Below, piece after piece: positions 1,237 through 19,197 of a DNA stretch of 64,000 nt (within the stretch, counting starts at the first letter, position 1; the number at the start of each line of letters is the position of its first letter). Source of the DNA: Endozoicomonas numazuensis (GTDB taxonomy: Bacteria > Pseudomonadota > Gammaproteobacteria > Pseudomonadales > Endozoicomonadaceae). The position numbers were made by a program, and so were the translations under genes. A model generated the notes under the pieces. It did no database searches and was not told the origin of the DNA. It was given only the letters and a program-made list of their open reading frames with translations. The stretch is taken from NCBI RefSeq assembly GCF_000722635.1, contig NZ_JOKH01000006.1:214243-278242 (forward strand). The letters run 5' to 3'.

Positions 1237-2446
<1,210 letters not shown>

Positions 2447-2520
2447 TCGCCCTCCGGGTGGCCTGTTATTGGAATTTATTCCGCTGTTCTATCAAAAGCT
2501 TTCTTGAGAGAATCGCCAGA

Positions 2521-3360
2521 CTACATCGGGCGAATAAGCATCAGTCCACAACCAAATCGTTTTGCCGGACCAAAGCCTTTATTGAGCTGTGATACAAAAG
2601 TATTTGTATCAGTTACCCGAAGAACGCCCTGATAGTCCATGCTACTGTAACCCGCGTTGCGTTTCTGTTTGACAGTACTCAGTGAATGCCAGAGATAGCC
2701 TGTTGCCTGAGTCTGTTCCAGTTCGAAACCACCTGCTTCAGCCTTTTTCTCCAGCCAGTTAACTGCCGCCAGATCAGCTTTCTGCTGCTGCTCTTGCATA
2801 AAAGCTTCACGGCGGGCATGTTCCTTAAAAGCCGGAAGTGACAGCAGTTTCTGTTGTAACTGTTTGCGGTCCAGATTATTTCGAAGCGTTCTTCGCTGCT
2901 TTTGTTGACCAAGATGTTGCTCAAGATACACATCACCTTCGGTCACCACCCCGTTTTCAAAACAGTGCTGCAGGAGATGCTGATATTTAGCATCCATCAC
3001 TACATCATGACGAGCTGAGTTTTTTTTACCCTCCTGACGCTTGGCTACAGTTGGATTAGCTCGCAGATGAAACGACAGCCGATCACCATTATGCAGCTTT
3101 GGCTGAAAAGGTTTGGAGTCAACCCTAAAGAGAGGTGAATTTTCACTGGGCGGTTTATGAGACAACGCATAAAACAGCGGCCAGCTTTGGACAGTGTTCT
3201 GCTGTTCACGACTATTTTCTTCCCGGAACAGATATTGCCCATCCGGGAATAAATCCCATAACAGCTGATGCATGCCATAGCTGTCTCGGCGAAGCAGCCT
3301 GCCCAACTGGGTTTGCTCCAGCAATGCGGGTGTGAGTTGTATTCGGGATAAATACATCAA
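2521..3360 (-). CDS. cas6e: Cas6e (CasE) pre-crRNA endoribonuclease with an internal ~60-aa insertion
   Basis: N-terminus MMYLSRIQL. FHLRANP and the C-terminal GFGPAKRFGCGLMLIRPM match E. coli CasE (FRLRANP ... GIGPAKSMGCGLLSLAPL). Length is 279 aa against ~199 aa. The extra Q/K/R-rich segment lies around residues 125-195. Confidence 0.88.
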   Translation of the reverse strand: MMYLSRIQLTPALLEQTQLGRLLRRDSYGMHQLLWDLFPDGQYLFREENSREQQNTVQSWPLFYALSHKPPSENSPLFRVDSKPFQPKLHNGDRLSFHLRANPTVAKRQEGKKNSARHDVVMDAKYQHLLQHCFENGVVTEGDVYLEQHLGQQKQRRTLRNNLDRKQLQQKLLSLPAFKEHARREAFMQEQQQKADLAAVNWLEKKAEAGGFELEQTQATGYLWHSLSTVKQKRNAGYSSMDYQGVLRVTDTNTFVSQLNKGFGPAKRFGCGLMLIRPM

Positions 3361-4139
3361 CTATCCTCTCTTACCGTTAGTTGCTGAAGCCATAGGTTTT
3401 CTTTCCGGGGCTGAAACTGCCAGCGTCGACGAGATAATGGCTGGTCATGGCGTACTAGTTGATGCACCTGGCTGGCTGGCACTTCATCGGGCTGGGCAAA
3501 ATCTGTTAACTTCCCCTGCCAGTAATAGTGACAGGCGTTGTCTTTCTTCAGAAAACGCTCATCGGTCGCCCAGTCGTACTCTCTGCTAAGTAACTCTTTA
3601 GGTTGGTAATCCGTCAGTGCCTTAAGGAAACCCTCCGCCTCCATCAGTTCAGGTTGTAATGGTGCTGCCAGAGGGCAGGCTTTGCGGCCAAGGTATAGGT
3701 GAAACATTGGTTTCAACAACGCCTGCTGTAGTTGCTGGAGAGACCAGTAAGCTTGCTCACTGGCTCTGATAGCCACTATTGCCAGCGCATCGGTGCGATA
3801 TTCCCGGCTGGAGAGGACTGTCCCTAAGGGCTTTTTCCCTAAAACAATTTCATCCCGCCGTGTCCGAAAATGAAAGCCTTTCGCTTCATTTTTAGGAGCC
3901 TGCGCTGTGTGATAATCCATGAGAAAACCACCAGCAGAAACCTGTTTAACGGCAATGGAATAATCCTGCGCCAGAGCCTGCTGAGAAGATTCATCGCCAC
4001 GGCGTATACCCAGCGCCGCTCCCAGTAATCCAAGAATGGCTGATTTGCCAGGGTAGCTGGCACTATGGCGATTTTCGCCCAGTGCTATCTCCCCCCAGCT
4101 GGCCATAGGGCCATAGAGTCGAAAAAGCAGATAGTTCAT
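3357..4139 (-). CDS. cas5: Cas5e (CasD)
   Basis: MNYLLFRLYGPMASWGEIALGENRHSASYPGKSAILGLLGAALGIRR resembles the CasD N-terminus (LILRLAGPMQAWGQP ... GLLGACLGI). The operon position is also correct. Confidence 0.9.
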   Translation of the reverse strand: MNYLLFRLYGPMASWGEIALGENRHSASYPGKSAILGLLGAALGIRRGDESSQQALAQDYSIAVKQVSAGGFLMDYHTAQAPKNEAKGFHFRTRRDEIVLGKKPLGTVLSSREYRTDALAIVAIRASEQAYWSLQQLQQALLKPMFHLYLGRKACPLAAPLQPELMEAEGFLKALTDYQPKELLSREYDWATDERFLKKDNACHYYWQGKLTDFAQPDEVPASQVHQLVRHDQPLSRRRWQFQPRKENLWLQQLTVREDS

Positions 4140-4148
4140 CCTCTGCTC

Positions 4149-5216
4149 CTACTCTGCAACAAAAGCCAGAAGCTCTTGAAGGCTGCCTTCACCTGTGATG
4201 GCGTTTAGAGAGCTGTAGACATCAGCACAATCACCATAAACACGGTTAAAGTTGTCACGCTGTTTTTCCAGAGCCTGTACAGCTTCTGTCGCATAATCTT
4301 CAGCGTACTTATTCACTGGCTTCAAGAAAGCAACAGAAAGTGAACGCGGTTGCTGGTCACCCTTTTCTGCCAATACATAGGACGCGTAAGCCCGACTGCC
4401 GAAACTGTTTTGCTTACCTTGTGGGGACACTTTAACTGCCGCTTCGGTTAATGCAGCAATGGCCTTATTAGCCAGCTCAATATCGCTATTCAGGTTTTCG
4501 ACCAACAGTTCTTTGTTGATACAGATGTATGAGTAGAACAACCCAGCGGCAAAACCTGTTTCACCAATATGAGCAGCACCGGCATCTTCACTGCCGTCAT
4601 TCAAATCATCAACAGCGGTAAAGTAGTCATCTTCGATAGTGACAGGGTGAACAGATATAGCGTGGGCGACCTGACAAGCCGCTTCTTGACCAAAATGCTG
4701 CTTGCCTTTTACTGCCAACATCCGACCAAACATTGCAATATCAACACAGTGACTATTTTCCCGCAGCAAGTTCAGCTCTTCTGTTTTAGGAGCCCTTTTT
4801 TCACTTAACAGGGCAGAAACCAGCTCTTGAACTGCGTTATATTCATCCCTAGATAAATGGACAGGTTGTTTTAAAATAGTTTCTTTATATGCATTCGTTT
4901 TATCTTTACCTTCGGTATCAGCAAAAGCAGAAGCTATCTCTTTACCCCATAAAACAGCATCTTTTTCCTTTATTCCATTCTCACTAAACTTTTTTGCCGC
5001 ATCATAACCCATGCGTTTTGTTCGAGTGCCAATATGGTTTCCTAAAGCACGTTCAAATAACTCTGATGTTTTCCAAGATCGCTTCAGGCTCTGGGAAGAA
5101 ACCCTGAGACGATCTGTGCCACCCATTTTGGCGGTTTTTGGCCGTCCAAGATCATCACGATTAAGGTTTGCGGGTGGGTAGGAAGTGAGCAGATGCAGTT
5201 GCAGAAAACGGCTCAT
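4149..5216 (-). CDS. cas7: Cas7e (CasC) Cascade backbone subunit
   Basis: 355 aa. MSRFLQLHLLTSYPPANLNRDDLGRPKTAKMGG is a typical Cas7e N-terminus. It sits between cse2 and cas5. Confidence 0.92.
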   Translation of the reverse strand: MSRFLQLHLLTSYPPANLNRDDLGRPKTAKMGGTDRLRVSSQSLKRSWKTSELFERALGNHIGTRTKRMGYDAAKKFSENGIKEKDAVLWGKEIASAFADTEGKDKTNAYKETILKQPVHLSRDEYNAVQELVSALLSEKRAPKTEELNLLRENSHCVDIAMFGRMLAVKGKQHFGQEAACQVAHAISVHPVTIEDDYFTAVDDLNDGSEDAGAAHIGETGFAAGLFYSYICINKELLVENLNSDIELANKAIAALTEAAVKVSPQGKQNSFGSRAYASYVLAEKGDQQPRSLSVAFLKPVNKYAEDYATEAVQALEKQRDNFNRVYGDCADVYSSLNAITGEGSLQELLAFVAE

Positions 5217-5252
5217 AATGATATCTCCTTCAAATAAAAGGTTAGTTCGCTA

Positions 5253-5798
5253 TCAGTCTTTGAATGCAGCGTAATAGTCACTGGCCCACCTTACAGCCAG
5301 CCGATCCTGAGGACGTGAAGCCGGTGCAAACCGGAACTCCCTGAGCCAGTGCAGGATGCTGTCGGCCAGAGAGAGAATATTCACCTTGCCACCGAGCAGA
5401 TCAACTGCGCGACAGAGGCGGGTAAAAAATTCCTGCTCAGTACGGCTTTTTTGTAACTGCTGAAATCTCAATTCACTCATGGGCACTTTGCCGCCTTTTT
5501 CCTTTGGCTTTGCCAGGCTGGTTGCAAAGCTCTGTTCTGGTGAAGCGTCTTTCACCCGGGCAAGCACAGCGGCTACCATGGCTGCATCTGAAAAACCAAT
5601 TCCGGTCGCATCCGGTGCTACGCCCCAGTAACCCGGCATTTGCTGTAAAAAGCCAGCAAAAGCGGAAGTGAGTAATACATCATCACTGTTGGATACACGC
5701 CGCAACCGGGCTCGTTCTCCCCGATTGTCTTGCAGCGACTTATGCCAGGTTTTTAGTGCCTTTTGGTCGTTTTCATTTATTATGTGATAGGTCTTCAT
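5253..5798 (-). CDS. cse2: Cse2 (CasB) small Cascade subunit
   Basis: 181-aa ORF between cse1 and cas7, of the right size and position for Cse2. Its start overlaps the cse1 stop by 1 bp. Confidence 0.85.
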   Translation of the reverse strand: MKTYHIINENDQKALKTWHKSLQDNRGERARLRRVSNSDDVLLTSAFAGFLQQMPGYWGVAPDATGIGFSDAAMVAAVLARVKDASPEQSFATSLAKPKEKGGKVPMSELRFQQLQKSRTEQEFFTRLCRAVDLLGGKVNILSLADSILHWLREFRFAPASRPQDRLAVRWASDYYAAFKD

Positions 5799-7405
5799 TA
5801 AGCGACCTCCGGTTCTTTAGCTACTAATTCTTGCATTTTCTTAACACAAGGTATGCGATAGAAGTTTTTCTCTAGTGAATTTCTGGCATTGGCTATCCGC
5901 CTCATATTTTTTCCTTCAAAGTCACTGGTCAGCACTGTTTGATCAAACAACTCTGTATAGGTGCTTGAAATCAGTTGAAGCCAACTTTGTGCTACTTTTG
6001 AAGGGAAACGGTGATTATCAATACTATCTATAAGATCAGATAAATTTTTATAAAATTCAGTTTCAGCCATTTTCCAAAAGGCAAGTTCAAGATATTTAGT
6101 TTTCTTAAAAGCAGCTATAGCTTGCTTATTTCGTTCTCTTTCTGCTTTATCATTGCCCCACCACGCCTCAGAGACAGCAACGTACAGTTTTTCAATTGCT
6201 TTTTCAGTGACTTCAATGAGCATAAATGTCCACTCAGATAGTACCGTCTTTTTCTCATTTGCAACACGCAGTGCAGGTATTTTTTTATTTATGAAGCCCA
6301 GTACTTTGGCACTCTCTGCTCGATAACCAAAACACCACAATGAAAGGTCATCAATATTGCGCTCATAGAGAGCAAGCTGAACAACAACTGCTGGTGAGAT
6401 TTGTTTTCCCTGATAATGCATGCCGCACACAATTGATGGCCAATCGGAGAATCCGTAAGAAAAATCCACTCCTGCCAACGCCTTGGGGAATTTATTTTTC
6501 TTTTCTTCCAAAACATAAGGACTTAGTGGATGAACCCAGCCATCGGCGTAGAAAACACCATCTTTGATTCTTTTATAAGTTTTTACCCCCGTAGTAAGAG
6601 ACTCTCCTGAAATATCACAAAATCCGTTTACTTTCTCTACTTGCAAACAAATCCTTCTAGGTTGAGTCCAGTAATGCTGTAAAGGGTTTGTATCAGCAGG
6701 GGATGTTTTCTCTTTTTTAGGACTTATTCTCGTTTTCGTTAACCATGGAAAAATAAACTCGGCATTAGCTTTTTCCCAGTCTCCACGTATTAGAAAACCA
6801 CTTTCTCGATCAATAATGTTAAGCCAGAGTTTTTGCCACAATAAGGATTCATAGCCTGTAGTTAACAAAGTAGTTACAGGGCCATTGTGACGCAACCCAA
6901 TCCTGTGTTTTCCCCATGCTAAAACACCTGTTGTTTGTGTATCAAACAAAGCGATTGCAGCCCAATAAGGCGAAACAACCCTTGTTACTCCAGTTTTTAC
7001 AAAAAGGTCAGTATTTTTGTCTCTTGTATTAACGCTCAATTCTCCGCCAATAATATCCTCAATGGGTAAACTGTCCCCTTCAAAATCTTCAAAATCCTGC
7101 ATAAATGCAGGCCCATCGCTTATATCAATATTGAAAGCCTGCCTAACTGACTCAAAAGCCTTTTTAAGAACCTGTGCATCCGGAACAGTGTCCCAACACT
7201 CAAACCACGCCTCATCATCTTCCGGCGCGAAAGTAGTTTGCAAAAGTCCAATCAAGAACTGATACAAAGCGCCCTGAAAGTCAACCCTGGGGGCGTTGAT
7301 CTCAATCACAGGATTTTCGGTTTCGGCAATTTGCCAGGGAGCGATTTTACAGGGGCTGCCGTCTTGCCGGGTAACAGGCAACCACTGATCTGAAATAAGG
7401 TTCAT
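5798..7405 (-). CDS. cse1: Cse1 (CasA/Cas8e) large Cascade subunit
   Basis: 535-aa ORF that is the first gene of the Cascade operon, downstream of cas3. Size and position fit Cas8e. Confidence 0.85.
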   Translation of the reverse strand: MNLISDQWLPVTRQDGSPCKIAPWQIAETENPVIEINAPRVDFQGALYQFLIGLLQTTFAPEDDEAWFECWDTVPDAQVLKKAFESVRQAFNIDISDGPAFMQDFEDFEGDSLPIEDIIGGELSVNTRDKNTDLFVKTGVTRVVSPYWAAIALFDTQTTGVLAWGKHRIGLRHNGPVTTLLTTGYESLLWQKLWLNIIDRESGFLIRGDWEKANAEFIFPWLTKTRISPKKEKTSPADTNPLQHYWTQPRRICLQVEKVNGFCDISGESLTTGVKTYKRIKDGVFYADGWVHPLSPYVLEEKKNKFPKALAGVDFSYGFSDWPSIVCGMHYQGKQISPAVVVQLALYERNIDDLSLWCFGYRAESAKVLGFINKKIPALRVANEKKTVLSEWTFMLIEVTEKAIEKLYVAVSEAWWGNDKAERERNKQAIAAFKKTKYLELAFWKMAETEFYKNLSDLIDSIDNHRFPSKVAQSWLQLISSTYTELFDQTVLTSDFEGKNMRRIANARNSLEKNFYRIPCVKKMQELVAKEPEVA

Positions 7406-7559
7406 TACTCAGTACCTCTGTAAGCTTGTACAAAGATAGGCATTTTATTCATTTTGTTTCCTTTAATGCAGACATCCCTGTCTAAACTCACTGACGTTAT
7501 TTCTCTGATGCTAAGAGATGAACCGCTTAGCAGTTTGGTAAACAAAGTTGTTCCCTGCC
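7406..7559 (-). promoter_or_regulatory. cas3-cse1 intergenic region. Expected site of the Cascade operon promoter (in E. coli this is the H-NS/LeuO-controlled Pcas).
   Basis: 154-bp AT-rich gap between the cas3 stop and the cse1 start. No motif is confidently identified. Confidence 0.35.
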
Positions 7560-10274
7560 TTAGCAGGGTTTTCGTCCAAAATCCCAGCCACTTTGTGCCT
7601 GATACAGATGTTCTGTTTCAGGAACCAGGGGAAACATCTGAACATACTTTAAAGAAATTATTTCCTGTTTGAGTTGCTCTATGACAGGTAACCAGATTTC
7701 AGGAATCAGAGATCTGGCCTTTTCCCACTCATGGACTGGCAGTTGAATCTGGCTAAGCCGCCAGCGGTGGTTTGGATTTTCGTTTTCTGCCCAGGGCTTT
7801 AACTGGCCACTGTCGTCCGGCATCACCAGTACCACAGCGAGAGTTTCTACTTCATTGAGCCGGGTTGGGGTATGGATCTCTTCATCCCAGACATTGGCAG
7901 GGCCACCACTTTTCGAGGTGTAGCCCGGTTTCAGCTCAAGGCAGTTGAATTCACCTATATTTTTCCTGGATTTATCTTCCCCCTCTGCTTCAAAACTTTG
8001 CTGCTGCAGGCATTCTGGAATATCTGACTGTGCTTCATCGCCATAAACCCCCTCGATTAAACGCCGAGCATCTTCGGGCATAGCAAACCCTTGTTTTTTG
8101 AGAAGTAAACGCGCCGTCAACCAGAGCTGACCAGTGTGGAAATAAACGCTCTGGGTTCCGGGCAAGACAGACCTGAGCCATTGTTCACTATTTACTGAAT
8201 CCGGATCAGGTGAATGCAGGAACAGACAAGGCGGCGGGCGCTGGTCAATTTCATTTGTATTTAGCAGGTTCCCATGTGAATCACGGCTATGCCTCTGCAA
8301 ACGGCCTGCACGTTGAATCAGCAGATCAATAGGGGCCAGATCGGAAATCAGTTGATCAAAATCCAAGTCCAGACTTTGTTCTACTACCTGAGTAGCAATC
8401 AGCACCCGCCCTGCTCTTTGTTCTGCTCCAGATTTTTTACCAAACCGTTCCAACACATTGCCTTCAACAGTTTGCCGGTCAATCATGGCAAACCGGCTGT
8501 GAAATAAAGACAGGTTCTCAGAATCAATGCGCGGGTCATTCAAGAGTTGCTGATAGGCTGCCCGGGCATCTTTAACAGTATTGCGAATCCAACAGATACA
8601 ACGCCCCTGCGCCACTACTTGAGCAATTTGTTCAACCGCCTCTTCCGGGTTATTCACCCTTTTAACCTGAACTTTACGTTTTACGCTGTCACGGGTAGGG
8701 AGTGCCCGTTTATTAAACCCATGATCAGAGACATAGCTGACCAGCGGGTATTCTTCCGTCTCAGACAACCCAGACAATGGAAGCTCCCTGCCCTCAAGGT
8801 AAGCATCCAGCAACTCTTTGCGAAACTGAAACGGTAAGGTAGCCGACAGCAGGACGACACTGCCCCCCTGGGCAGCATGGAATTTTAACAGGGCGGTAAG
8901 GAGCTTCCGCATGTATGAGTCATAGGCATGCACTTCATCCAGTAGCAAAACCTTCCCCTTCAGCCCCAGCATCCTTAACGACTGGTGACGTGCAGGCAGC
9001 ACTGCCAGCAACGCCTGATCAATAGTGCCTATGCCGACATCAGCTAACAGTGCTTTTTTTCGGTTATCTGCTAACCATTGGTTGCAATAGGCACTGGCTG
9101 ACTGATCGCCAGAACCGTAATTATGATCATCTTCCTGCCCAGAAAGCTTCACTGATTCCTGAAACTTTTCGGATAACTGGCTGGCACCATGAGCAAGTAT
9201 CAAAGAGGGTTTAGGTTCTCCCTGAAACAGGGACTGATAACTCTTACTGAGTCGGTTATACATCCCGTTGGCTGTCGCCATAGTGGGCAAACCAACATAT
9301 AAACCTTCTGCCAGCCCCTGATTCATTAAACGATGAACCAGAACCATGGCCGCCTCTGTTTTCCCCGCGCCAGTAACATCTTCAAGAATAAATAACTGTG
9401 GACTTTGGGGAATATCTACCGTTTGTGCAAACTGCTGAAGAGGTGTCGGCTGCTCAATAAAATCGAACTGCTGTTTAATCGAAGAAAAAGGATTAATGGC
9501 TTTAGGTTGAAATTCAGCTTTTGTCAGAACTTCTTTTGCACGGGGCAGTGCCACCTTACTCCAATATTCCTGTAAAGATTGCCGGGTGCATTGGTATTTA
9601 AATACTGTTTGATCAGAACCCAACCAGTCCGCCAGGACTGCGACTCCGGCCAGTTGCCATGACGTTTTTCTGAAACGTTTTCGGCAAATTGTCTCCAGCG
9701 GAGAAAGATCAGGTAACCAATACTCAGCAGCGGCTCTGAAAAAAGCTTCGGCTGCTGGAATGTCTTCGTCAGGAACCAGAGATGTTGTTACAGCCCTTAC
9801 TAGTGGCTGTACTGGTTTCCCATGATGACCACAGACAATTTCCAGCCAGCCGTCAATATTACGCTGTGTTTTACCAACAGGGATAATATCGGTTAGTTTT
9901 TTTCGCAGCTCTTTTTGCCAGAGGCCATAGCCTAAAGAATCATGTCGAATCTGTTCATTATCAATTACAGCAAAGGGTACCAGATCATCGGATAACCCGG
10001 TCACCTTATTTTGAAAGCTCCGGGCAAATTTACCCAGATCGTGCAACATCAGACAAAAAGTGAACCATTGCTGCAACCATTCAGGCTCTACTTTTAACTG
10101 TTCAGCCAAAGATTTGCACAGTGTTTTTTGTGGGTCTAACAGACACCGTCCAACCGCAGCTACATCAAGACAATGATAAACCAGCAAGTGATAACTGTTT
10201 TTATCATCCTGATCTTTACTGGCTTTGCCCCAATAACGGTAGAAAGACATATTTCTTTCAACTCTATGTAGCAT
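7560..10274 (-). CDS. cas3: Cas3 HD nuclease / SF2 helicase (type I-E)
   Basis: 904 aa. The N-terminal HD motif is YHCLDVAAVG ... LHDLGKF. The helicase carries DEVH (LLLDEVHAYD) and a Walker A motif, GAGKTEAA. Confidence 0.95.
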   Translation of the reverse strand: MLHRVERNMSFYRYWGKASKDQDDKNSYHLLVYHCLDVAAVGRCLLDPQKTLCKSLAEQLKVEPEWLQQWFTFCLMLHDLGKFARSFQNKVTGLSDDLVPFAVIDNEQIRHDSLGYGLWQKELRKKLTDIIPVGKTQRNIDGWLEIVCGHHGKPVQPLVRAVTTSLVPDEDIPAAEAFFRAAAEYWLPDLSPLETICRKRFRKTSWQLAGVAVLADWLGSDQTVFKYQCTRQSLQEYWSKVALPRAKEVLTKAEFQPKAINPFSSIKQQFDFIEQPTPLQQFAQTVDIPQSPQLFILEDVTGAGKTEAAMVLVHRLMNQGLAEGLYVGLPTMATANGMYNRLSKSYQSLFQGEPKPSLILAHGASQLSEKFQESVKLSGQEDDHNYGSGDQSASAYCNQWLADNRKKALLADVGIGTIDQALLAVLPARHQSLRMLGLKGKVLLLDEVHAYDSYMRKLLTALLKFHAAQGGSVVLLSATLPFQFRKELLDAYLEGRELPLSGLSETEEYPLVSYVSDHGFNKRALPTRDSVKRKVQVKRVNNPEEAVEQIAQVVAQGRCICWIRNTVKDARAAYQQLLNDPRIDSENLSLFHSRFAMIDRQTVEGNVLERFGKKSGAEQRAGRVLIATQVVEQSLDLDFDQLISDLAPIDLLIQRAGRLQRHSRDSHGNLLNTNEIDQRPPPCLFLHSPDPDSVNSEQWLRSVLPGTQSVYFHTGQLWLTARLLLKKQGFAMPEDARRLIEGVYGDEAQSDIPECLQQQSFEAEGEDKSRKNIGEFNCLELKPGYTSKSGGPANVWDEEIHTPTRLNEVETLAVVLVMPDDSGQLKPWAENENPNHRWRLSQIQLPVHEWEKARSLIPEIWLPVIEQLKQEIISLKYVQMFPLVPETEHLYQAQSGWDFGRKPC

Positions 10275-10709: not shown

Positions 10710-10786
10710 TGGTAGGCGGTACTGGAGTCGAACCAGCGACCTTTACGATGTCAACGTAACGCTCTAACCAGCTGAGCTAACCGCCT
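10710..10786 (-). tRNA. tRNA-Val (anticodon GAC), CCA encoded
   Basis: The minus-strand sequence AGGCGGT-TA-GCTC-AGCTGGTTA-GAGC-G-TTACG-TTGACAT-CGTAA-AGGTC-GCTGG-TTCGACT-CCAGT-ACCGCCT-A-CCA folds into a perfect cloverleaf with a 7-bp acceptor stem, U33 and A37. Confidence 0.92.
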
Positions 10787-13823: not shown

Positions 13824-15017
13824 TTACCCTTTAACATTGACCACCTGTCTCAGGGTATGAACTACTTCCAGCAGATCGGTCTGGAGATCCATTACCCGAT
13901 CGATGTTTTTGTAAGCAGCCGGTATTTCATCGATAACGCCTTTATCTTTACGACATTCGATGCCTTCTGTCTGCTCACGCAGGTCCTTCTGGGTAAACGA
14001 GTTTCTGGCAGCGGTTCTGGACATGGTTCGTCCTGCACCATGGGCACAGCTACAGAATGATTCGGCATTCCCCTTGCCACGAATGATGTAGGAGCGAGCG
14101 CCCATGGAACCAGGAATAATACCCAGATCCCCTTCCCTGGCACGGATAGCGCCTTTTCGGGTCACCCAGACTCGGTCACCGTCGTGGATTTCACGCTCCA
14201 CAAAGTTATGGTGACAGTTGATGGCCTCACGAGTCACCGAAAACTTCTTGAGACGATGCTTCAATGATCGCAGTACGGCATTCATCATGTGCTCACGATT
14301 CTGCATGGCATAATCCTGAGCCCAGGCGACCGCTTCCACATAATCATCAAAGTATTCGCTACCCTCTTTCAGATAACCCAGCTCTTTATCCGGAAGATGG
14401 ATCTGGTGTCGCTCCATTTCCCTTCTTGCCAGACGAATAAAGTACTGACCAATCATATTGCCGATGCCACGACTGCCGGAATGCAACATCACCCAGACAT
14501 CGTCGTTTTCATCAAGACAGAGCTCGATAAAGTGGTTTCCTGAACCCAGGGTTCCCAGCTGACTGGCAAACTTTCGAGCATTACCGTGTCGGGAGATACC
14601 CGAATGCTTTTCCAGAATATGACTGAGCCTCATGGCCAGTGCTGAACCACCGGCCAGCTGCTCATTTTTATGGGCCCCACCCGCTCCCAGCGGGATGGTT
14701 CTCTCAATGTCATTCCGGATCTGATACAAGTTATCCGGCAGGTCATGCGCTTTCAGTGAAAGCCTGACGGCATTCATCCCGCAACCAATATCCACACCCA
14801 CAGCAGCGGGAATAATGGCATCGGTTGTAGCGATGACCGAACCCACAGTTGCACCCCGGCCCAGGTGGATATCCGGCATGCCGGCAACATGTTTGTATAT
14901 AAACGGCAGGCTGGCCACCCGACGCATCTGCGCCAGGGCTTCATGCTGTACCTCATCGGTCCAGATCTTAACCGGTTTTTGCTGATCCTTCGCGGCCAGC
15001 AGCGTGACTACAGGCAT
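13824..15017 (-). CDS. rtcB: RtcB RNA 3'-phosphate/2',3'-cyclic-phosphate to 5'-OH ligase
   Basis: 397 aa. HLGRGATVGSVIAT ... VGVDIGCGM ... GSGNHFIELC ... HNF are RtcB signature motifs. Confidence 0.93.
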   Translation of the reverse strand: MPVVTLLAAKDQQKPVKIWTDEVQHEALAQMRRVASLPFIYKHVAGMPDIHLGRGATVGSVIATTDAIIPAAVGVDIGCGMNAVRLSLKAHDLPDNLYQIRNDIERTIPLGAGGAHKNEQLAGGSALAMRLSHILEKHSGISRHGNARKFASQLGTLGSGNHFIELCLDENDDVWVMLHSGSRGIGNMIGQYFIRLARREMERHQIHLPDKELGYLKEGSEYFDDYVEAVAWAQDYAMQNREHMMNAVLRSLKHRLKKFSVTREAINCHHNFVEREIHDGDRVWVTRKGAIRAREGDLGIIPGSMGARSYIIRGKGNAESFCSCAHGAGRTMSRTAARNSFTQKDLREQTEGIECRKDKGVIDEIPAAYKNIDRVMDLQTDLLEVVHTLRQVVNVKG

Positions 15018-15850
15018 AATTGCTTTCCTTTTGCTGCCTCCCCTGTTTCAGGCCGGTCATGAACCCAGGCTTTAAACAGGGGATTTAAACGGTCTTCCTG
15101 TTCTTTATGAGCGGGTATCATCAAGGATTTTTCACTGCTTCCCAGTCGCTCCAGCTCTTTGACAAGAAATTCATTAATCGGGGCTATCGGGGTGGAATAG
15201 TCTGCCTCCAGAGAAGCTCTCTTCTTCTTGAGCAGCGCTTCTATAGAAGCCATCAATCCACCTTCCGACAACAAGCCCCTGGCCAGGGTTTCAAAATCCA
15301 GTGGCGGTATGGTGTAGTATGTTTCTATCCATTTCATACACAACACTGGCCTCAATACATAGAAGTATTTCTTTAGTCGAACCCTGTCACCTTTCAGGTA
15401 ATCCCGAAAATTACCATTAGCCATATGGAGATAGTGATAAAAGCCGGCTCTGGGCGAATAGTATTTATCCAGTACCCTGGTCATTGAGCTTCTGAAACTA
15501 CTGACCTCTTTGTAGACATAATCAGAATTCAGCCACTCCACCAGCGATGGATTGGACTTTTTCATCAGTTTGAGCGCCTTGCGAAGGTCCCAACCACTGA
15601 CATCCAACTCATCGGTGATCGGCTTCTCGATCACATCTCGCTTATGTTCGACATTGATCGTCAGATACCAGTCTGCGGGCCTGACATACAGGAATCGAAC
15701 ATCGTAATCGCTGTCTGGGGAAGCAAAACCCCAGGCCCGGCTTCCGGATTCACAGGCGTATAGCACTCGAACATTATGTTCTTTTTCTATGAGTGCAAGC
15801 TCTTCCAGAACTCTGTTTTTCATAGCTTTCATTGGATGACTCCTACCCAA
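15008..15850 (-). CDS. Minimal nucleotidyltransferase (Pol-beta superfamily, COG3541/PF10127-like) associated with RtcB operons
   Basis: YACESGSRAWGFASPDSDYDVRFLY is the GS-x9-DxD nucleotidyltransferase motif. It overlaps the rtcB start by 10 bp, implying co-transcription. Confidence 0.75.
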   Translation of the reverse strand: MGRSHPMKAMKNRVLEELALIEKEHNVRVLYACESGSRAWGFASPDSDYDVRFLYVRPADWYLTINVEHKRDVIEKPITDELDVSGWDLRKALKLMKKSNPSLVEWLNSDYVYKEVSSFRSSMTRVLDKYYSPRAGFYHYLHMANGNFRDYLKGDRVRLKKYFYVLRPVLCMKWIETYYTIPPLDFETLARGLLSEGGLMASIEALLKKKRASLEADYSTPIAPINEFLVKELERLGSSEKSLMIPAHKEQEDRLNPLFKAWVHDRPETGEAAKGKQLCL

Positions 15851-15854
15851 CCTT

Positions 15855-17030
15855 TCAACCCAGCCTGACGGTCTGTTTCATCAACTGGTCGATGCCACCG
15901 TAAACATTCAGGTTCTGAACTTTTTCAGACACCTTTTCCAAAGCTTCCAGCTCTTTTAACCGGAGCAGAATGGCGTTGTTCTCCATCATTTTCGCGGTAT
16001 TGTGCAGACTCCGGGTCGCTGCAGTTTCTTCCCTTCTCTTAATCACGTTCGCTTCAGCCGCTTTCTGGGCTTCAACCACCCGGTTGAGAATCGTCCTGAT
16101 CTCGCCGGGCAGGACAATATCCTTCACACCCACCCGCTCCAGCCGGATGCCTTCTGCCTCCAACTCTGCGACCACCTGATCTTTGACCGTGGTATTAATG
16201 TGCAGTTTGTCTTCCAGAAGCTGATCAAGTGTTCTTGTGCCTACCGCTTCACGCAGAGCTAATTGCAAAGCCCGGTAAGCAAATGCTTCGTGATCGGACT
16301 GACTTTCAGCCACCTGTCGTGCATCAACAATTCTCAAGCCCGCTGTCAGGTTGACCCGGATAGATACCCGATCTTTGGTCAGAATTTCCTGCCCTGACAC
16401 TTCCAGGGTTTTCTGACGCAGATCCAGCAGTTTGACTTCCATCTCATGATTGATCTGCCAGAAACCATAAAGACCTGCCTTCAACTCCTGCTGCAGAACA
16501 CCATCGACATACAGCATGCCTATGTGGCCTGCGGGGACCACAGATTCCAGAACAGGTACCTGCAAGCGACTACCGGGCTCCACCAGTAACCTTTGAGATT
16601 GATTGACGTTTCTGAGCCTGATTTCATTCAGTAAAGAGCGATCCACTTCCAAACCTTCTGAAAGCGACACCTTTTTTAACTCCAGTTTTCCGGCTTTTTT
16701 CCATACCAGAAGCGTGCCACCGGGAAAGGCAATGCCCTGCAGAACATCGTTGTGGTACAGCAGCCCTACTTCATTTTTGTCGACTCTCCATTCATGGAGC
16801 AGTTCGGCAATTTCCTGGTGATCCCGCACCATTTGCAGCGCACTGGGATCATCAAAGTAGAGATCATTGCTATCAAAGCTGTTGATCTCCAATGTGCAGA
16901 GTCTGCCGTGAACATGATGACGACCAGCCGACAGAACCTTTTCAAATTTTTTATTGCGATACAGTAAGGCCACTTCATTCTCGGCCACGGTAATCTGTTT
17001 GCCGAGCCAGGTGTTTTCTATAACTGCCAT
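15855..17030 (-). CDS. SPFH/band-7 (stomatin/prohibitin-like) domain protein. It is the first ORF of the rtcB operon.
   Basis: EAFAYRALQLALREAVGTRTLDQLLEDKL ... ILNRVVEAQKAAEANVIKRREETAA is a typical band-7 core followed by a coiled coil. The start is chosen at MAVIEN because GGAGG lies 8 nt upstream. The ORF track instead extends the start to 17084. Confidence 0.8.
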   Translation of the reverse strand: MAVIENTWLGKQITVAENEVALLYRNKKFEKVLSAGRHHVHGRLCTLEINSFDSNDLYFDDPSALQMVRDHQEIAELLHEWRVDKNEVGLLYHNDVLQGIAFPGGTLLVWKKAGKLELKKVSLSEGLEVDRSLLNEIRLRNVNQSQRLLVEPGSRLQVPVLESVVPAGHIGMLYVDGVLQQELKAGLYGFWQINHEMEVKLLDLRQKTLEVSGQEILTKDRVSIRVNLTAGLRIVDARQVAESQSDHEAFAYRALQLALREAVGTRTLDQLLEDKLHINTTVKDQVVAELEAEGIRLERVGVKDIVLPGEIRTILNRVVEAQKAAEANVIKRREETAATRSLHNTAKMMENNAILLRLKELEALEKVSEKVQNLNVYGGIDQLMKQTVRLG

Positions 17031-17225
17031 TTTCATTACCTCCAGCAGTTTGTTTTTTATCGAGAATAAACAGGGGCAACCCACTTGCCAGACATCAGCC
17101 TGCTCCGGGGTAAACTATCGGGAACCTTTCGGTTTGCGACGCATCATGCCGGAGCTGCAGACACCACACAGAGGTCGGTGCAGCTGTTAATTCATTAGTT
17201 TTTTGAGCAGGACATGCCTGCGAAT

Positions 17226-17297
17226 CATGGGTTACGTAGCGGGACTCGAACCCGCAACACGAGAAATAATTCCCTGCTATACCATTTAGCTATACGT
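17226..17297 (-). ncRNA. tRNA-like RNA (72 nt) with a complete acceptor, D and T arms and an encoded CCA, but a 4-nt loop where the 7-nt anticodon loop should be. Candidate tRNA mimic of Y-RNA/YrlA type in the rtc operon leader.
   Basis: Minus-strand read: CTACGTA-TA-GCTA-AATGGTA-TAGC-A-GGGAA-TTAT-TTCTC-GTGTT-GCGGG-TTCGAGT-CCCGC-TACGTAA-C-CCA. Every stem pairs (one C·A at 1:72 and one G·U). It lies between a sigma-54 promoter and the SPFH gene. Confidence 0.6.
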
Positions 17298-17400
17298 AGT
17301 AGTCAGGAGTCGAACCTGAGCCCTTGGGCTTTCCCATGTCAGCGGCGGAATACGTTTTGGCAGACCACACGCACCGGAGTGTTATTCGAAACACGTCAAA
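17298..17400 (-). other. Structured 5' leader of the rtc operon containing a second tRNA T-arm-like hairpin (CTCAGG-TTCGACT-CCTGAG) and a 5'-proximal hairpin (GTGTT-TCGAAT-AACAC). It does not complete a cloverleaf by eye.
   Basis: The reverse complement of 17300-17325 contains GGCTCAGGTTCGACTCCTGAC, a GGTTCGA T-loop consensus with a 5-bp stem. The element sits immediately 5' of the tRNA-like RNA and just after the predicted transcription start. Confidence 0.4.
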
Positions 17401-17416
17401 GCTGACGGCATAGGTA

Positions 17417-17433
17417 TTTCAAGGTGCGTGCCA
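17417..17433 (-). promoter_or_regulatory. Sigma-54 (RpoN) -24/-12 promoter for the tRNA-like RNA, SPFH, NTase and rtcB operon
   Basis: The minus strand reads TGGCAC-GCACC-TTGAA, against the consensus TGGCAC-N5-TTGCW. The -12 element has TTGA instead of TTGC. It is placed ~160 bp upstream of the divergent rtcR start, as in E. coli rtcR/rtcBA. Confidence 0.55.
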
Positions 17434-17595: not shown

Positions 17596-19197
17596 ATGAC
17601 TAAAAAGAACGTAGTGATCAGTATCCTGGGTGTTATTAAAGACAATAAAGGCCGGGGATCAAAGCGCTGGCAGACTTGGCGCCCCAATGTCAGTCTGGTG
17701 ATGCAGGATGATTTCAAGGTTGATCGCCTGGAGCTGCTTTATGATCCGGAGTACTTCAGAATGGCCGGCAAGGTGGTGGCTGATATCCAGTCGGTATCGC
17801 CTCATACCGAAGTGGTTCTGGTTGAAGCCCCCTGGGCAGACCCTTGGGATTTTGCTGAAATTTATGGTTGGTTCGATCAATACACCCGGCACTACCCGGT
17901 TAAAACCGAGAGTGAAAACTATTTCCTGAATATCACCACCGGAACCCACGTTAATCAGATCTGTATGTTTCTGATCAGTGAGGCCCGTTTAATTCCTGCC
18001 AGCCTCCTACAGGTTTCTCCTGACTTAGACGCAGAAAACCGGGCTGTCGGCACCCTGAGAATCATCGACCTGGATCAGGCGAAATACGATGCACTGGCCA
18101 GCCGCTATCAAGAACAGGCGCAAACCGGCCAGGACTTTCTGAAGTCCGGCATTAAAACCCGAAACGCTGCATTTAATACCCTGATCGCAGAAATTGAGCA
18201 GGTAGCCATTGCTTCCTCAGACCCGATTCTGCTGGAAGGCCCCACAGGTGCGGGTAAAACTCAGTTAGCTCGAAGAATCTATGAACTGAAAGCCAGTCGA
18301 AATGATGTGATGGGCAAATTTGTATCCGTCAACTGCGCTACCTTGAGGGGTGATGGGTCTATGTCGGCCTTGTTTGGTCACAGCAAAGGGGCCTACACCG
18401 GAGCCCAGCAAAGTCGGGAAGGTTATTTGAAAAATGCCCACCAGGGGATTCTGTTCCTGGATGAAATTGGCGAGCTCGGTCTGGATGAGCAGGCCATGCT
18501 GCTGCACGCCATTGAAGAAAAGCGCTTCTACCCGGTGGGCAGTGATAAAACCGTGTTCAGTGATTTTCAACTGCTGGCAGGGACTCACCAGGATCTTCAG
18601 CAGGCGGTCATTAAAGGCACTTTCCGGGAAGATCTAATGGCCCGTATAAACATCTGGAGCTGGAAACTGCCAGGACTGACCGAACGACTGGAAGACTTTG
18701 AACCCAACCTCGATTTTGAACTGCAACAACACGCGCGACAAAAGAACAAACAGGTGCGCTTCAATAAAACGGCTCGCGCCGCTTATATGCGGTTTGCCAC
18801 CCAACCGGATAGTTCCTGGTCATCCAACTTTCGAGACCTGACGGCCAGTGTGAATCGAATGGTAACGCTGAGCGAGGGTGGTCGAATCAATGAAGAGAAC
18901 GTCAACAGAGAAATCTCTCGTTTACAGCAACGCTGGCAACCGGCCAAAAACCAGCATGACTCCTCAGTAGAATTGTCCGATTATCTGAGCGAAGAGCAAC
19001 TGACTTCAATTGATCAGTTTGATCAGTTGCAACTGGTTAATGTCATACATATATGCCGACAATGCCGCTCCATGGCAGAAGCTGGCCGCAGGTTATTTAA
19101 TGTCAGCCGATCAGAGAAAGTCAGCAGTAATGACTCTCACCGGTTAAGAAATTACCTCTCACGGTTCGGATTAACATTCAAAAACATAACTGAATAG
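17596..19197 (+). CDS. rtcR: RtcR, a sigma-54-dependent transcriptional activator with an N-terminal CARF domain
   Basis: 533 aa. MTKKNVVISILGV ... GRGSKRWQTWRPN ... DRLELLYD ... HITTGTHV parallels the E. coli RtcR CARF region. It is followed by a AAA+ module (LLEGPTGAGKTQLARRI; GAYTGA) and a C-terminal HTH. Confidence 0.92.
   Translation: MTKKNVVISILGVIKDNKGRGSKRWQTWRPNVSLVMQDDFKVDRLELLYDPEYFRMAGKVVADIQSVSPHTEVVLVEAPWADPWDFAEIYGWFDQYTRHYPVKTESENYFLNITTGTHVNQICMFLISEARLIPASLLQVSPDLDAENRAVGTLRIIDLDQAKYDALASRYQEQAQTGQDFLKSGIKTRNAAFNTLIAEIEQVAIASSDPILLEGPTGAGKTQLARRIYELKASRNDVMGKFVSVNCATLRGDGSMSALFGHSKGAYTGAQQSREGYLKNAHQGILFLDEIGELGLDEQAMLLHAIEEKRFYPVGSDKTVFSDFQLLAGTHQDLQQAVIKGTFREDLMARINIWSWKLPGLTERLEDFEPNLDFELQQHARQKNKQVRFNKTARAAYMRFATQPDSSWSSNFRDLTASVNRMVTLSEGGRINEENVNREISRLQQRWQPAKNQHDSSVELSDYLSEEQLTSIDQFDQLQLVNVIHICRQCRSMAEAGRRLFNVSRSEKVSSNDSHRLRNYLSRFGLTFKNITE

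Follow-up and report, generated by a model that had tools for sequence, protein, structure and literature searches.

The stretch of Endozoicomonas numazuensis DNA analysed here (64,000 nucleotides, hereafter the window) carries on its minus strand an intact RNA-repair operon, in the order tRNA-like RNA, SPFH/Band-7 protein, RlaP nucleotidyltransferase and RtcB ligase, within an RtcR/sigma-54 context. In profile searches the domain assignments of the operon proteins and of RtcR were all well over the curated cut-offs. The operon is tight: a gap of only 22 nt separates the SPFH and RlaP genes, and the end of the RlaP gene (TAG, 15010-15008) overlaps the start of rtcB (ATG, 15017-15015) by 10 bp. 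A search for an intrinsic terminator 3' of rtcB found none. An earlier note on this DNA had claimed an operon of SPFH, minimal nucleotidyltransferase and rtcB genes with this same overlap, under sigma-54/RtcR control, with a tRNA mimic in the leader and without an RNA cyclase, and all of these claims held up in our analysis.

Regulator and promoter

Divergent from the operon lies rtcR (17596-19197, plus strand), which encodes a sigma-54 activator of CARF-AAA+-HTH architecture with profile scores of 2.4e-68 for PF06956 (RtcR) and 4.4e-47 for PF00158 (Sigma54_activat). The protein reached 762 bits against NF038308 (cut-off 650) and 788 bits against the PADLOC model for RtcR. Between rtcR and the tRNA-like element we found a consensus match to a sigma-54-type -24/-12 promoter element, TGGCACgcaccTTGA (17419-17433, minus strand), the sole such match in the 64-kb window. 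An equivalent TGGCAC-N5-TTGA/TTGC element was present in at least 25 related loci, where it is placed some 100-140 nt ahead of the first tRNA-like element or, in loci with rtcB as the first gene, of rtcB itself. It is also kept in E. arenosclerae. These observations support the predicted grouping of the three genes into a single operon that has a tRNA-like leader and is controlled by sigma-54 and RtcR from this putative promoter.

A tRNA-like RNA in the leader

The leader encodes a tRNA-like RNA of the 'b7a-tRNA' type (17228-17299, minus strand), located 197 nt ahead of the start of the SPFH gene. It scored 46.4 bits against the Rfam tRNA model and 68.2 bits against R1, a covariance model that we built for this family, and was reported by ARAGORN as tRNA-??? 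with an abnormal anticodon loop. The element has a cloverleaf with an 'anticodon' loop of 4 nt and an encoded 3' CCA. Because this loop is only 4 nt long, we ruled out a functional decoding tRNA at this position. Identity of the leader with a Y RNA was not supported (YrlA 28.8 bits versus a gathering threshold of 69 bits), and a long enclosing stem in the minimum free energy fold of the leader was no better than in shuffled sequences (z -1.64).

The cloverleaf of the family is supported by covariation: among 70 homologous tRNA-like elements 94% of cells were paired, versus 34-45% in slid controls, with compensatory changes in 17 of 20 pairs. While the D and T arms are nearly invariant across loci, the anticodon loop is hypervariable in length (4-7 nt) and sequence between orthologous loci, with 'anticodons' that correspond to many amino acids and also to stop codons. 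One to three tandem copies occur per locus, and their loops differ.

The SPFH protein

The first protein-coding gene (15855-17030, minus strand) encodes a slipin-like SPFH/Band-7 protein of 391 aa. Its longest open reading frame spans 15855-17084, with the ATG at 17030, 8 nt after a GGAGG, as the likely true start. The product is identical to an NCBI entry from Endozoicomonas numazuensis named 'slipin family protein'; another name given to it in databases is 'regulator of protease activity HflC'. Domain searches, run with this protein and with the nucleotidyltransferase, placed it in PF01145 (Band_7; E 1.2e-30, residues 182-353). Two extra N-terminal beta modules precede the SPFH core (approximately residues 160-306), which is followed by a long C-terminal helix (309-370), and the C-terminal half of the protein is extremely conserved. 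Membrane-anchored SPFH scaffolds likewise have an SPFH fold and, after it, an oligomerising helix, whereas the N-terminus of the window protein consists of beta modules where these scaffolds have their anchor. No transmembrane, hairpin or hydrophobic segment was detected in the protein (maximum 19-residue Kyte-Doolittle mean 1.14), and a gene for an NfeD or FtsH-type partner is absent, the operon partners being RlaP and RtcB only. The SPFH protein is predicted from these features to be soluble and to lack a membrane anchor, which speaks against the membrane localisation hinted at in the earlier note. A vault-like (MVP) reading of the N-terminal modules failed, as tandem MVP-type repeat domains before the SPFH shoulder were not found. 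A literature search turned up no published experiment, in any organism, on the tRNA-like RNA of such loci, on their SPFH protein or on an association of the two with RtcB.

RlaP, RtcB and the missing RtcA

The second gene (15008-15832, minus strand) encodes an RNA ligase-associated Pol-beta nucleotidyltransferase (RlaP) of 274 aa, identical to NCBI protein P0121. Here the longest open reading frame covers 15008-15850, and the ATG at 15832, with AGGAG before it, is the likely true start. The match to PF10127 (E 4.2e-89, 299 bits with a cut-off of 23) extends over profile positions 1-247 of 249. The GS motif and the three catalytic acidic residues are intact, and all 28 homologues compared, drawn from several phyla, keep G30-S31, D40/D42/D44 and D82 unchanged. 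Homologues with 50-57% identity were found in Paenibacillus, Acidobacteria, Chloroflexi and Bacteroidota. A PDB sequence search with RlaP gave no match; a crystal structure of PfRlaP is reported. Activity has been demonstrated for the enzymes of P. fluorescens and P. aeruginosa only, and consists of the untemplated, Mn2+-dependent addition of 1-2 NMP to an RNA 3'-OH (PMC12776372).

The third gene, rtcB (13824-15017, minus strand), encodes a 3'-phosphate/5'-OH RNA ligase of 397 aa that matched PF01139 over its full length (E 9e-130) and is 54% identical to E. coli RtcB, also over the full length. PDB matches were the RtcB structures of P. horikoshii, T. thermophilus and human. The motifs DIGCG, GSGNHF, HSGSRG, CHHNF and CAHGAGR were recognised in the translation, in which both the metal ligands (Cys/His/Asp) and the His motif that accepts GMP are intact. 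An rtcA gene is missing from the 64-kb window: tblastn with E. coli RtcA gave no match there (E <= 1e-5), and the same query recovered RtcA in 45 related loci.

Census of related loci

A neighbourhood census was anchored on SPFH orthologues and comprised 81 loci. A tRNA-like element lies directly upstream of the SPFH gene in 77 of them, and RtcB is encoded on the same strand in 69. We found RlaP in 46 and RtcA in 45 loci. In 11 of the 81 loci RtcB was not found within 7 kb, and the SPFH/tRNA-like module therefore does not strictly require a ligase next to it. The commonest order was SPFH-RtcB-RtcA-RlaP (31/81). The exact layout of the window, SPFH-RlaP-RtcB without RtcA, was shared by 10 loci from four lineages, namely Endozoicomonas (two loci), Alteromonadaceae (four), Bacterioplanoides (one) and Aliikangiella (three). 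This arrangement is recurrent and not a one-off or chance fusion. Among the census loci the clade of RtcB to which the window protein belongs never adjoins RtcA. In some relatives the module is enclosed by large tRNA arrays (tRNA-array loci of Cellvibrionaceae).

Proposed function and alternative readings

In the proposed course of events metal-independent ribonucleases would cut tRNA (or rRNA) and leave 5' fragments with a 2',3'-cyclic phosphate. Such fragments would bind to the CARF domain of RtcR, which would oligomerise and switch on the sigma-54 promoter, as shown for Salmonella RtcR and expected here from orthology. The gene layout suggests a single transcript comprising the tRNA-like RNA, SPFH, RlaP and RtcB, and translation of RlaP and RtcB would be coupled. 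The tRNA-like RNA may then be excised and join the soluble SPFH protein in its oligomeric form, and the two might act together as an RNP scaffold or repair cofactor analogous to Ro60-Y RNA in rsr-yrlBA-rtcBA; both steps are suggested by strict co-occurrence. RlaP would put back the 1-2 nucleotides lost at the broken 3' end, an activity shown for the Pseudomonas orthologues, and RtcB would join 2',3'>P or 3'-P ends to 5'-OH ends, as shown for its family. Without RtcA, only those breaks with a cyclic or 3' phosphate already in place should trigger induction and be repaired.

The earlier note had suggested 3'-end repair coupled to ligation, which fits the addition of 1-2 NMP by RlaP at the broken end of a nicked tRNA (PMC12776372). 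It had also offered CCA-like addition as an example, and a RlaP that mends the 3' termini of tRNAs or tails RNA, independently of RtcB ligation, would agree with the Pol-beta nucleotidyltransferase fold and the GS/DxD motifs. In vitro RlaP adds to any RNA 3'-OH, full-length tRNAs included, and its 3'-OH product is not ligatable by RtcB (PMC12776372). However, when offered nicked-tRNA mimics it extends the 5' half, at its 3' end, in preference to the 3' fragment; it takes all four NTPs without specificity and halts after 1-2 nt (PMC12776372). RlaP moreover accompanies RNA ligases from two superfamilies that are unrelated to each other and is translationally coupled to rtcB in the window, and we regard a CCA-like function as very unlikely. 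We give hardly any credence to the SPFH gene as a passenger, in which case a common slipin/HflC-like membrane-scaffold gene would have come to lie in an rtc locus by chance and would have no role in RNA repair. The database names would suit such a gene, as would the PA14 paFlo8 deletion mutant, which had no phenotype in the general, standard assays tried (PMC13086221), but the SPFH orthogroup is tied to rtcR, rtcB and the tRNA-like element in most of the 81 loci, across several gammaproteobacterial families and in more than one gene order. The missing membrane anchor and NfeD partner and the conservation of the C-terminal half argue in the same direction.

A different role might fall to the tRNA-like RNA, which could be a decoy for anticodon nucleases, or a sensor of them, and not a cofactor. 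Its fast-evolving anticodon arm would mimic the targets of these nucleases and be cut in their place, or its cleavage would feed the RtcR signal, with SPFH sequestering the RNA and RtcB/RlaP regenerating it. Hypervariable loops between near-invariant D and T arms, tandem copies with differing loops, and the known sensing of tRNA halves by RtcR (PMC7790460) are in line with such a role. Yet with its 4-nt loop the copy in the window would be a poor mimic of an anticodon loop, and loop variability could equally mean a lack of constraint; we consider this role unlikely. In the reading of the SPFH/tRNA-like RNA complex as a repair cofactor, one mismatch stands out, as RlaP leaves a 3'-OH that is not a substrate of RtcB, and neither RtcA nor any kinase is encoded in the operon to bridge this gap. 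A broader scheme, possible though rather improbable in our estimate, would have the SPFH protein without transmembrane segment form a soluble cage-like oligomer that, with its own tRNA-like RNA, makes up a new bacterial RNP. Its task would be to capture broken tRNAs so that RlaP and RtcB can act on them, or to divert or sense anticodon nucleases. In the RtcA-less subtype, with its distinct RtcB clade and coupled RlaP, the reconciliation of the RlaP 3'-OH with the 3'-phosphate used by RtcB would fall to this complex, and the triad of spare or mimic tRNAs, SPFH and RtcB would also underlie the Cellvibrionaceae tRNA-array loci and the Anabaena TrcR regulon.

The anti-phage cassette envisaged in the earlier note received no direct support. 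Among the PADLOC models SPFH, RlaP and RtcB were without a match at E <= 1e-3, and RtcR alone matched (CARF models). Type I-E cas genes are located at 1526-10274, with a tRNA-Val gene, a DUF938 methyltransferase gene and uvrB between them and the operon; they were treated as coincidental neighbours and a defence-island reading was rejected.

Comparison with known systems

With canonical RtcR-regulated rtcBA loci the window shares RtcR, the sigma-54 promoter and an intact RtcB, and it differs from them in that the operon lacks RtcA. E. coli rtcBA/rtcR is similar in its divergent rtcR, its sigma-54 promoter and the sequence of RtcB, but has RtcA and lacks SPFH, RlaP and the tRNA-like leader. The rtc loci of P. 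aeruginosa and P. fluorescens are likewise controlled by RtcR and have RlaP adjoining RtcB and an embedded SPFH gene, PaFlo8 in P. aeruginosa PA14 (PMC13086221), a putative counterpart of the window protein. Unlike the window they keep RtcA, in the order rtcB-rlaP-rtcA (P. aeruginosa, PMC12776372).

Membrane SPFH cages (stomatin/slipin, HflK/C, QmcA, prohibitin, flotillin) have the SPFH fold and oligomerising helix in common with the window protein, which lacks their membrane anchor, and the MVP-type tandem repeats of the vault shell are absent from it. In Salmonella rsr-yrlBA-rtcBA, RtcR governs the joint transcription of RtcB with a structured, tRNA-mimicking ncRNA and a scaffold protein that binds RNA, a cofactor logic analogous to that proposed here. 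The scaffold there is TROVE/Ro60, whereas in the window it is SPFH, and no TROVE/rsr protein was found among the operon proteins. In bioRxiv 10.1101/312249, redundancy of Band-7/b7a-tRNA/RtcB with Ro/YrlA has been proposed.

The closest counterpart is the type described in 2016 by Burroughs and Aravind (Nucleic Acids Res 44:8525), whose abstract reportedly covers Band-7/b7a-tRNA/RtcB systems with RlaP. The passages citing this work in bioRxiv 10.1101/312249 and PMC12776372 attribute to it Band-7 with a tRNA-like RNA and RtcB, and RlaP beside RNA ligases; those in 10.1101/312249, PMC12776372 and PMC7824862 name it as the prediction of a 'Band-7 + b7a-tRNA + RtcB (+RlaP)' repair system. With this earlier description and the PA14 rtc locus with PaFlo8 and RlaP (PMC13086221, PMC12776372), as far as these passages go, the novelty implied in the earlier note was overstated. 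The locus is a further member and not a discovery, because its type was already known from comparative genomics and has many representatives among marine gammaproteobacteria; this type gains one member and the locus itself leaves the state of knowledge unchanged. It probably belongs to, and works as proposed for, the RtcR-controlled repair class of Band-7/SPFH with a cognate tRNA-like RNA and RtcB, here with RlaP and without RtcA. What the census contributes is that the RtcA-less layout is a recurrent subtype, that it tracks a distinct RtcB clade and that its SPFH partner is predicted to be soluble. The locus bears on the role of the SPFH protein and a dedicated tRNA mimic in RNA repair, and on how a RlaP 3'-OH end becomes an RtcB substrate. 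As a compact, RtcA-free version in four parts it is therefore a convenient minimal case for reconstitution. Compared with the type of Burroughs and Aravind it shows Band-7 after a tRNA-like ncRNA, an adjacent RtcB, an accessory RlaP and the RtcR/sigma-54 context, and differs in nothing essential, with RtcA absent and RlaP placed between SPFH and RtcB.

Organization of the operon

The compact operon spanned 13824-17433 on the minus strand. At its upstream end was a sigma-54-type -24/-12 element (TGGCACgcaccTTGA, 17433-17419, minus strand), the single match to TGGCAC-N5-TTGM across the 64-kb window, followed by a tRNA-like element (17299-17228, minus strand; Rfam tRNA 46.4 bits) for which ARAGORN reported an abnormal anticodon loop. 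About 197 nt past this element the same strand encoded a 391-aa SPFH/Band-7 protein (PF01145, 1.2e-30) and, after a gap of 22 nt, the 274-aa nucleotidyltransferase RlaP, which matched the full-length profile of PF10127 (4.2e-89). Their likely true starts, at 17030 and 15832, respectively, both had good Shine-Dalgarno spacing, and each product was 100% identical end to end to an NCBI protein of Endozoicomonas numazuensis. The last gene was rtcB (PF01139, 9e-130; minus strand), whose ATG overlapped the RlaP stop by 10 bp. The divergent rtcR was located at 17596-19197 on the plus strand (NF038308, 762 bits with a cut-off of 650). A tblastn search with E. coli RtcA gave no match in the 64-kb window, and the same query detected RtcA in 45 related loci. 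Because all these parts were confirmed and RtcA was not detected in the window, the earlier note was right throughout in observing a sigma-54 operon of tRNA-like element, SPFH gene, nucleotidyltransferase and overlapping rtcB without RtcA, including the two protein families that it named for searching.

The window also contained a type I-E CRISPR-Cas set (1526-10274, minus strand) with Cas3 HD-helicase, Cse1, Cas7/CT1975, Cas5, a Cas6e-type 'CRISPR_assoc' protein and Cas1. Between the cas genes and the operon lay a gene for a normal tRNA-Val(GAC) (10710-10786) and two unrelated ones, for a DUF938 methyltransferase and uvrB. A 140-aa ISL3-family transposase fragment (20823-21245, plus strand; PF01610, 5.8e-33) was followed downstream by a 940-aa ORF (22143-24965, plus strand), for which Pfam gave nothing at E <= 1e-4.

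Census of related loci

We anchored a census on the SPFH protein, the product of the most unusual gene of the operon; its full-length relatives (about 385-395 aa) number in the thousands. Scanning one genome per species yielded 472 genomic relatives, of which the best 80 were taken with 7-kb flanks, giving 81 loci with the window included. Loci were scored by tblastn (window RtcB, RlaP and RtcR; E. coli RtcA and RtcB) and ARAGORN, and three RtcA matches slightly below the 40% identity filter were reassigned manually. RtcB lay no more than 7 kb away and on the same strand in 69 of the 81 loci. RlaP was encoded in 46 loci and RtcA in 45, and a covariance model built from 70 upstream elements placed a tRNA-like element directly 5' of the SPFH gene in 77. 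The commonest layout was rtcR< [tRNA-like] SPFH> RtcB> RtcA> RlaP> (31/81). The layout of the window, SPFH-RlaP-RtcB without RtcA, recurred in 10/81 loci, from two Endozoicomonas species, four Alteromonadaceae, Bacterioplanoides and three Aliikangiella. Given these frequencies, the arrangement is not a one-off fusion of unrelated operons, a possibility raised in the earlier note. At least 25 loci had a sigma-54 element at the equivalent relative position. In loci with rtcB first, the sigma-54 element stood ahead of that gene, and rtcA was followed by the tRNA-like element and the SPFH gene.

Two RtcB-less loci from different genera (L006, 12188-14323; L058, 8484-10802) encoded a large secreted protein within a few kb past SPFH, a putative VIT/vWA-type sortase target as judged by eye from the translation, with a sortase-like ORF after it in L058. 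This is probably local synteny.

The tRNA-like RNA and its leader

The cloverleaf was strongly supported across 70 tRNA-like elements: 94.2% of cells were paired, versus 34-45% with slid partners, 17 of the 20 cloverleaf pairs showed both-sided changes, and none of 500 shuffles reached the observed covariation. D and T arms were nearly invariant, and the 'anticodon' loop varied in sequence and length (4-7 nt), with stop-codon 'anticodons' included. Loci carried one to three tandem copies. With its 4-nt loop and encoded CCA, the copy in the window is unable to decode.

Just upstream, the leader (17303-17349) contained an extra T-arm-like hairpin, UCAGG-UUCGACU-CCUGA (17319-17303, minus strand), with 100% conservation in E. 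arenosclerae. A sub-threshold match to YrlA (Y RNA-like; 28.8 bits, gathering score 69) took in this hairpin and the D arm of the tRNA-like element. The hairpin may be a remnant of a second tandem copy or a piece of a larger leader structure; a long enclosing stem in the leader MFE fold was not significant (z -1.64).

The SPFH protein

No hydrophobic segment was found in the SPFH protein (maximum 19-residue Kyte-Doolittle mean 1.14). Its AlphaFold model (pLDDT 84.6) showed two extra beta-rich N-terminal modules, the SPFH core and a long C-terminal helix. We conclude from sequence and model that the protein is likely soluble and stomatin-like; a vault-like architecture was not supported. Longer orthologues of 534-551 aa (proteins P0005 and P0011; loci L035, L040-L042, L051, L054, L055, L057, L061-L063), from the Pseudoalteromonas luteoviolacea group and Vibrio quintilis, had about 150 aa of the N-terminal beta module duplicated internally, giving an additional copy of the module. 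The tRNA-like elements upstream of their genes were missed by ARAGORN and recovered by the covariance model.

RlaP and RtcB

RlaP of the window retained the residues that are invariant across 28 homologues, namely the GS motif and the acidic D40/D42/D44 and D82. It was 50-57% identical to homologues from distant phyla, which is consistent with lateral spread.

The RtcB of the window shared 54% identity with E. coli RtcB, and the census contained two clades, the window type (397 aa) and an E. coli-like type. Twelve other loci encoded window-type RtcB (68-96% identity), making 13 in all (window, L002-L005, L008-L011, L053, L070, L077, L078). RtcA was adjacent in 0/13 window-type versus 45/56 E. 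coli-like loci (Fisher p = 6e-8, the loci not being phylogenetically independent). In six loci (L016, L030, L032, L065, L072, L078) a further RtcB paralogue, divergent at 27-31% identity, lay a few kb outside the operon on one strand or the other; it may be an RtcB2/PrfH-type ligase.

Proposed function

We consider a five-step repair model, taken as a whole, to be probable. RNA ends with cyclic phosphate would switch on RtcR, as shown in Salmonella, and the sigma-54 transcript would supply the tRNA-like RNA with SPFH, RlaP and RtcB. An SPFH oligomer and the tRNA-like RNA, to judge by their co-occurrence, might form a scaffold RNP. RlaP would then refill lost nucleotides, as shown for orthologues, and RtcB would seal the break, as shown for its family. 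RtcR is activated by 5' tRNA halves with 2',3'-cyclic phosphate ends, and RtcA is needed for its induction only where breaks bear 3'-phosphate (PMC7790460). Because RtcA is lacking, both the response and the repair by this subtype should be confined to already phosphorylated ends.

RlaP enzymes of P. fluorescens and P. aeruginosa append one or two NMPs at RNA 3'-OH ends, favour the broken 5' half of nicked tRNA and can restore aminoacylation to tRNA missing an anticodon-loop nucleotide (December 2025 preprint, PMC12776372). According to its authors the 3'-OH product is no RtcB substrate, and the operon has no extra enzyme that could make this product ligatable. Even so, we think it improbable that RlaP carries out CCA-like end repair or RNA tailing without dependence on ligation. 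Somewhat less improbable, though still unlikely, is that the tRNA-like RNA serves as a decoy or sensor for anticodon nucleases, and we give hardly any weight to the SPFH gene being a passenger. Under the repair model, the functional reading of the earlier note was largely right as to RNA repair; the membrane localisation that it proposed for SPFH was not supported, the protein having no hydrophobic segment. Its anti-phage suggestion is possible if taken broadly, as the countering of ribotoxins, and found no specific support: PADLOC matched RtcR only, and other genes lie between the nearby type I-E cas genes and the operon.

Comparison with known systems

The operon adds one more member to a system that comparative genomics had already described and biochemistry has characterised in part, and the combination is not new. 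Residual interest lies in the SPFH/tRNA-like module, in the operon as a minimal version without RtcA, and in two side observations possibly worth follow-up: the association of RtcA absence with one RtcB clade, and the arrays of tRNA genes next to the module in some relatives. As cited by Wang et al. [quoted passage not shown] The rtc locus of P. aeruginosa PA14 resembles the operon in containing an SPFH gene, PaFlo8, which gave no phenotype in general assays (PMC13086221), and RlaP, but PA14 keeps rtcA, with RlaP between rtcB and rtcA (PMC12776372).

In five loci from Cellvibrionaceae/Kangiellaceae MAGs (L070, L072, L078, L079, L080), arrays of 6-23 tRNA genes with many anticodons flanked RtcB and SPFH within about 6 kb; the order in L078 was 12 tRNAs, RtcB, 4 tRNAs, SPFH, and in L079 SPFH was preceded by 23 tRNAs. 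These arrays parallel in gene content (tRNA array, rtcB, slipin gene) the TrcR regulon of Anabaena, in which a 26-tRNA operon, rtcB and the slipin gene alr0740 are co-induced (PMC10272220).
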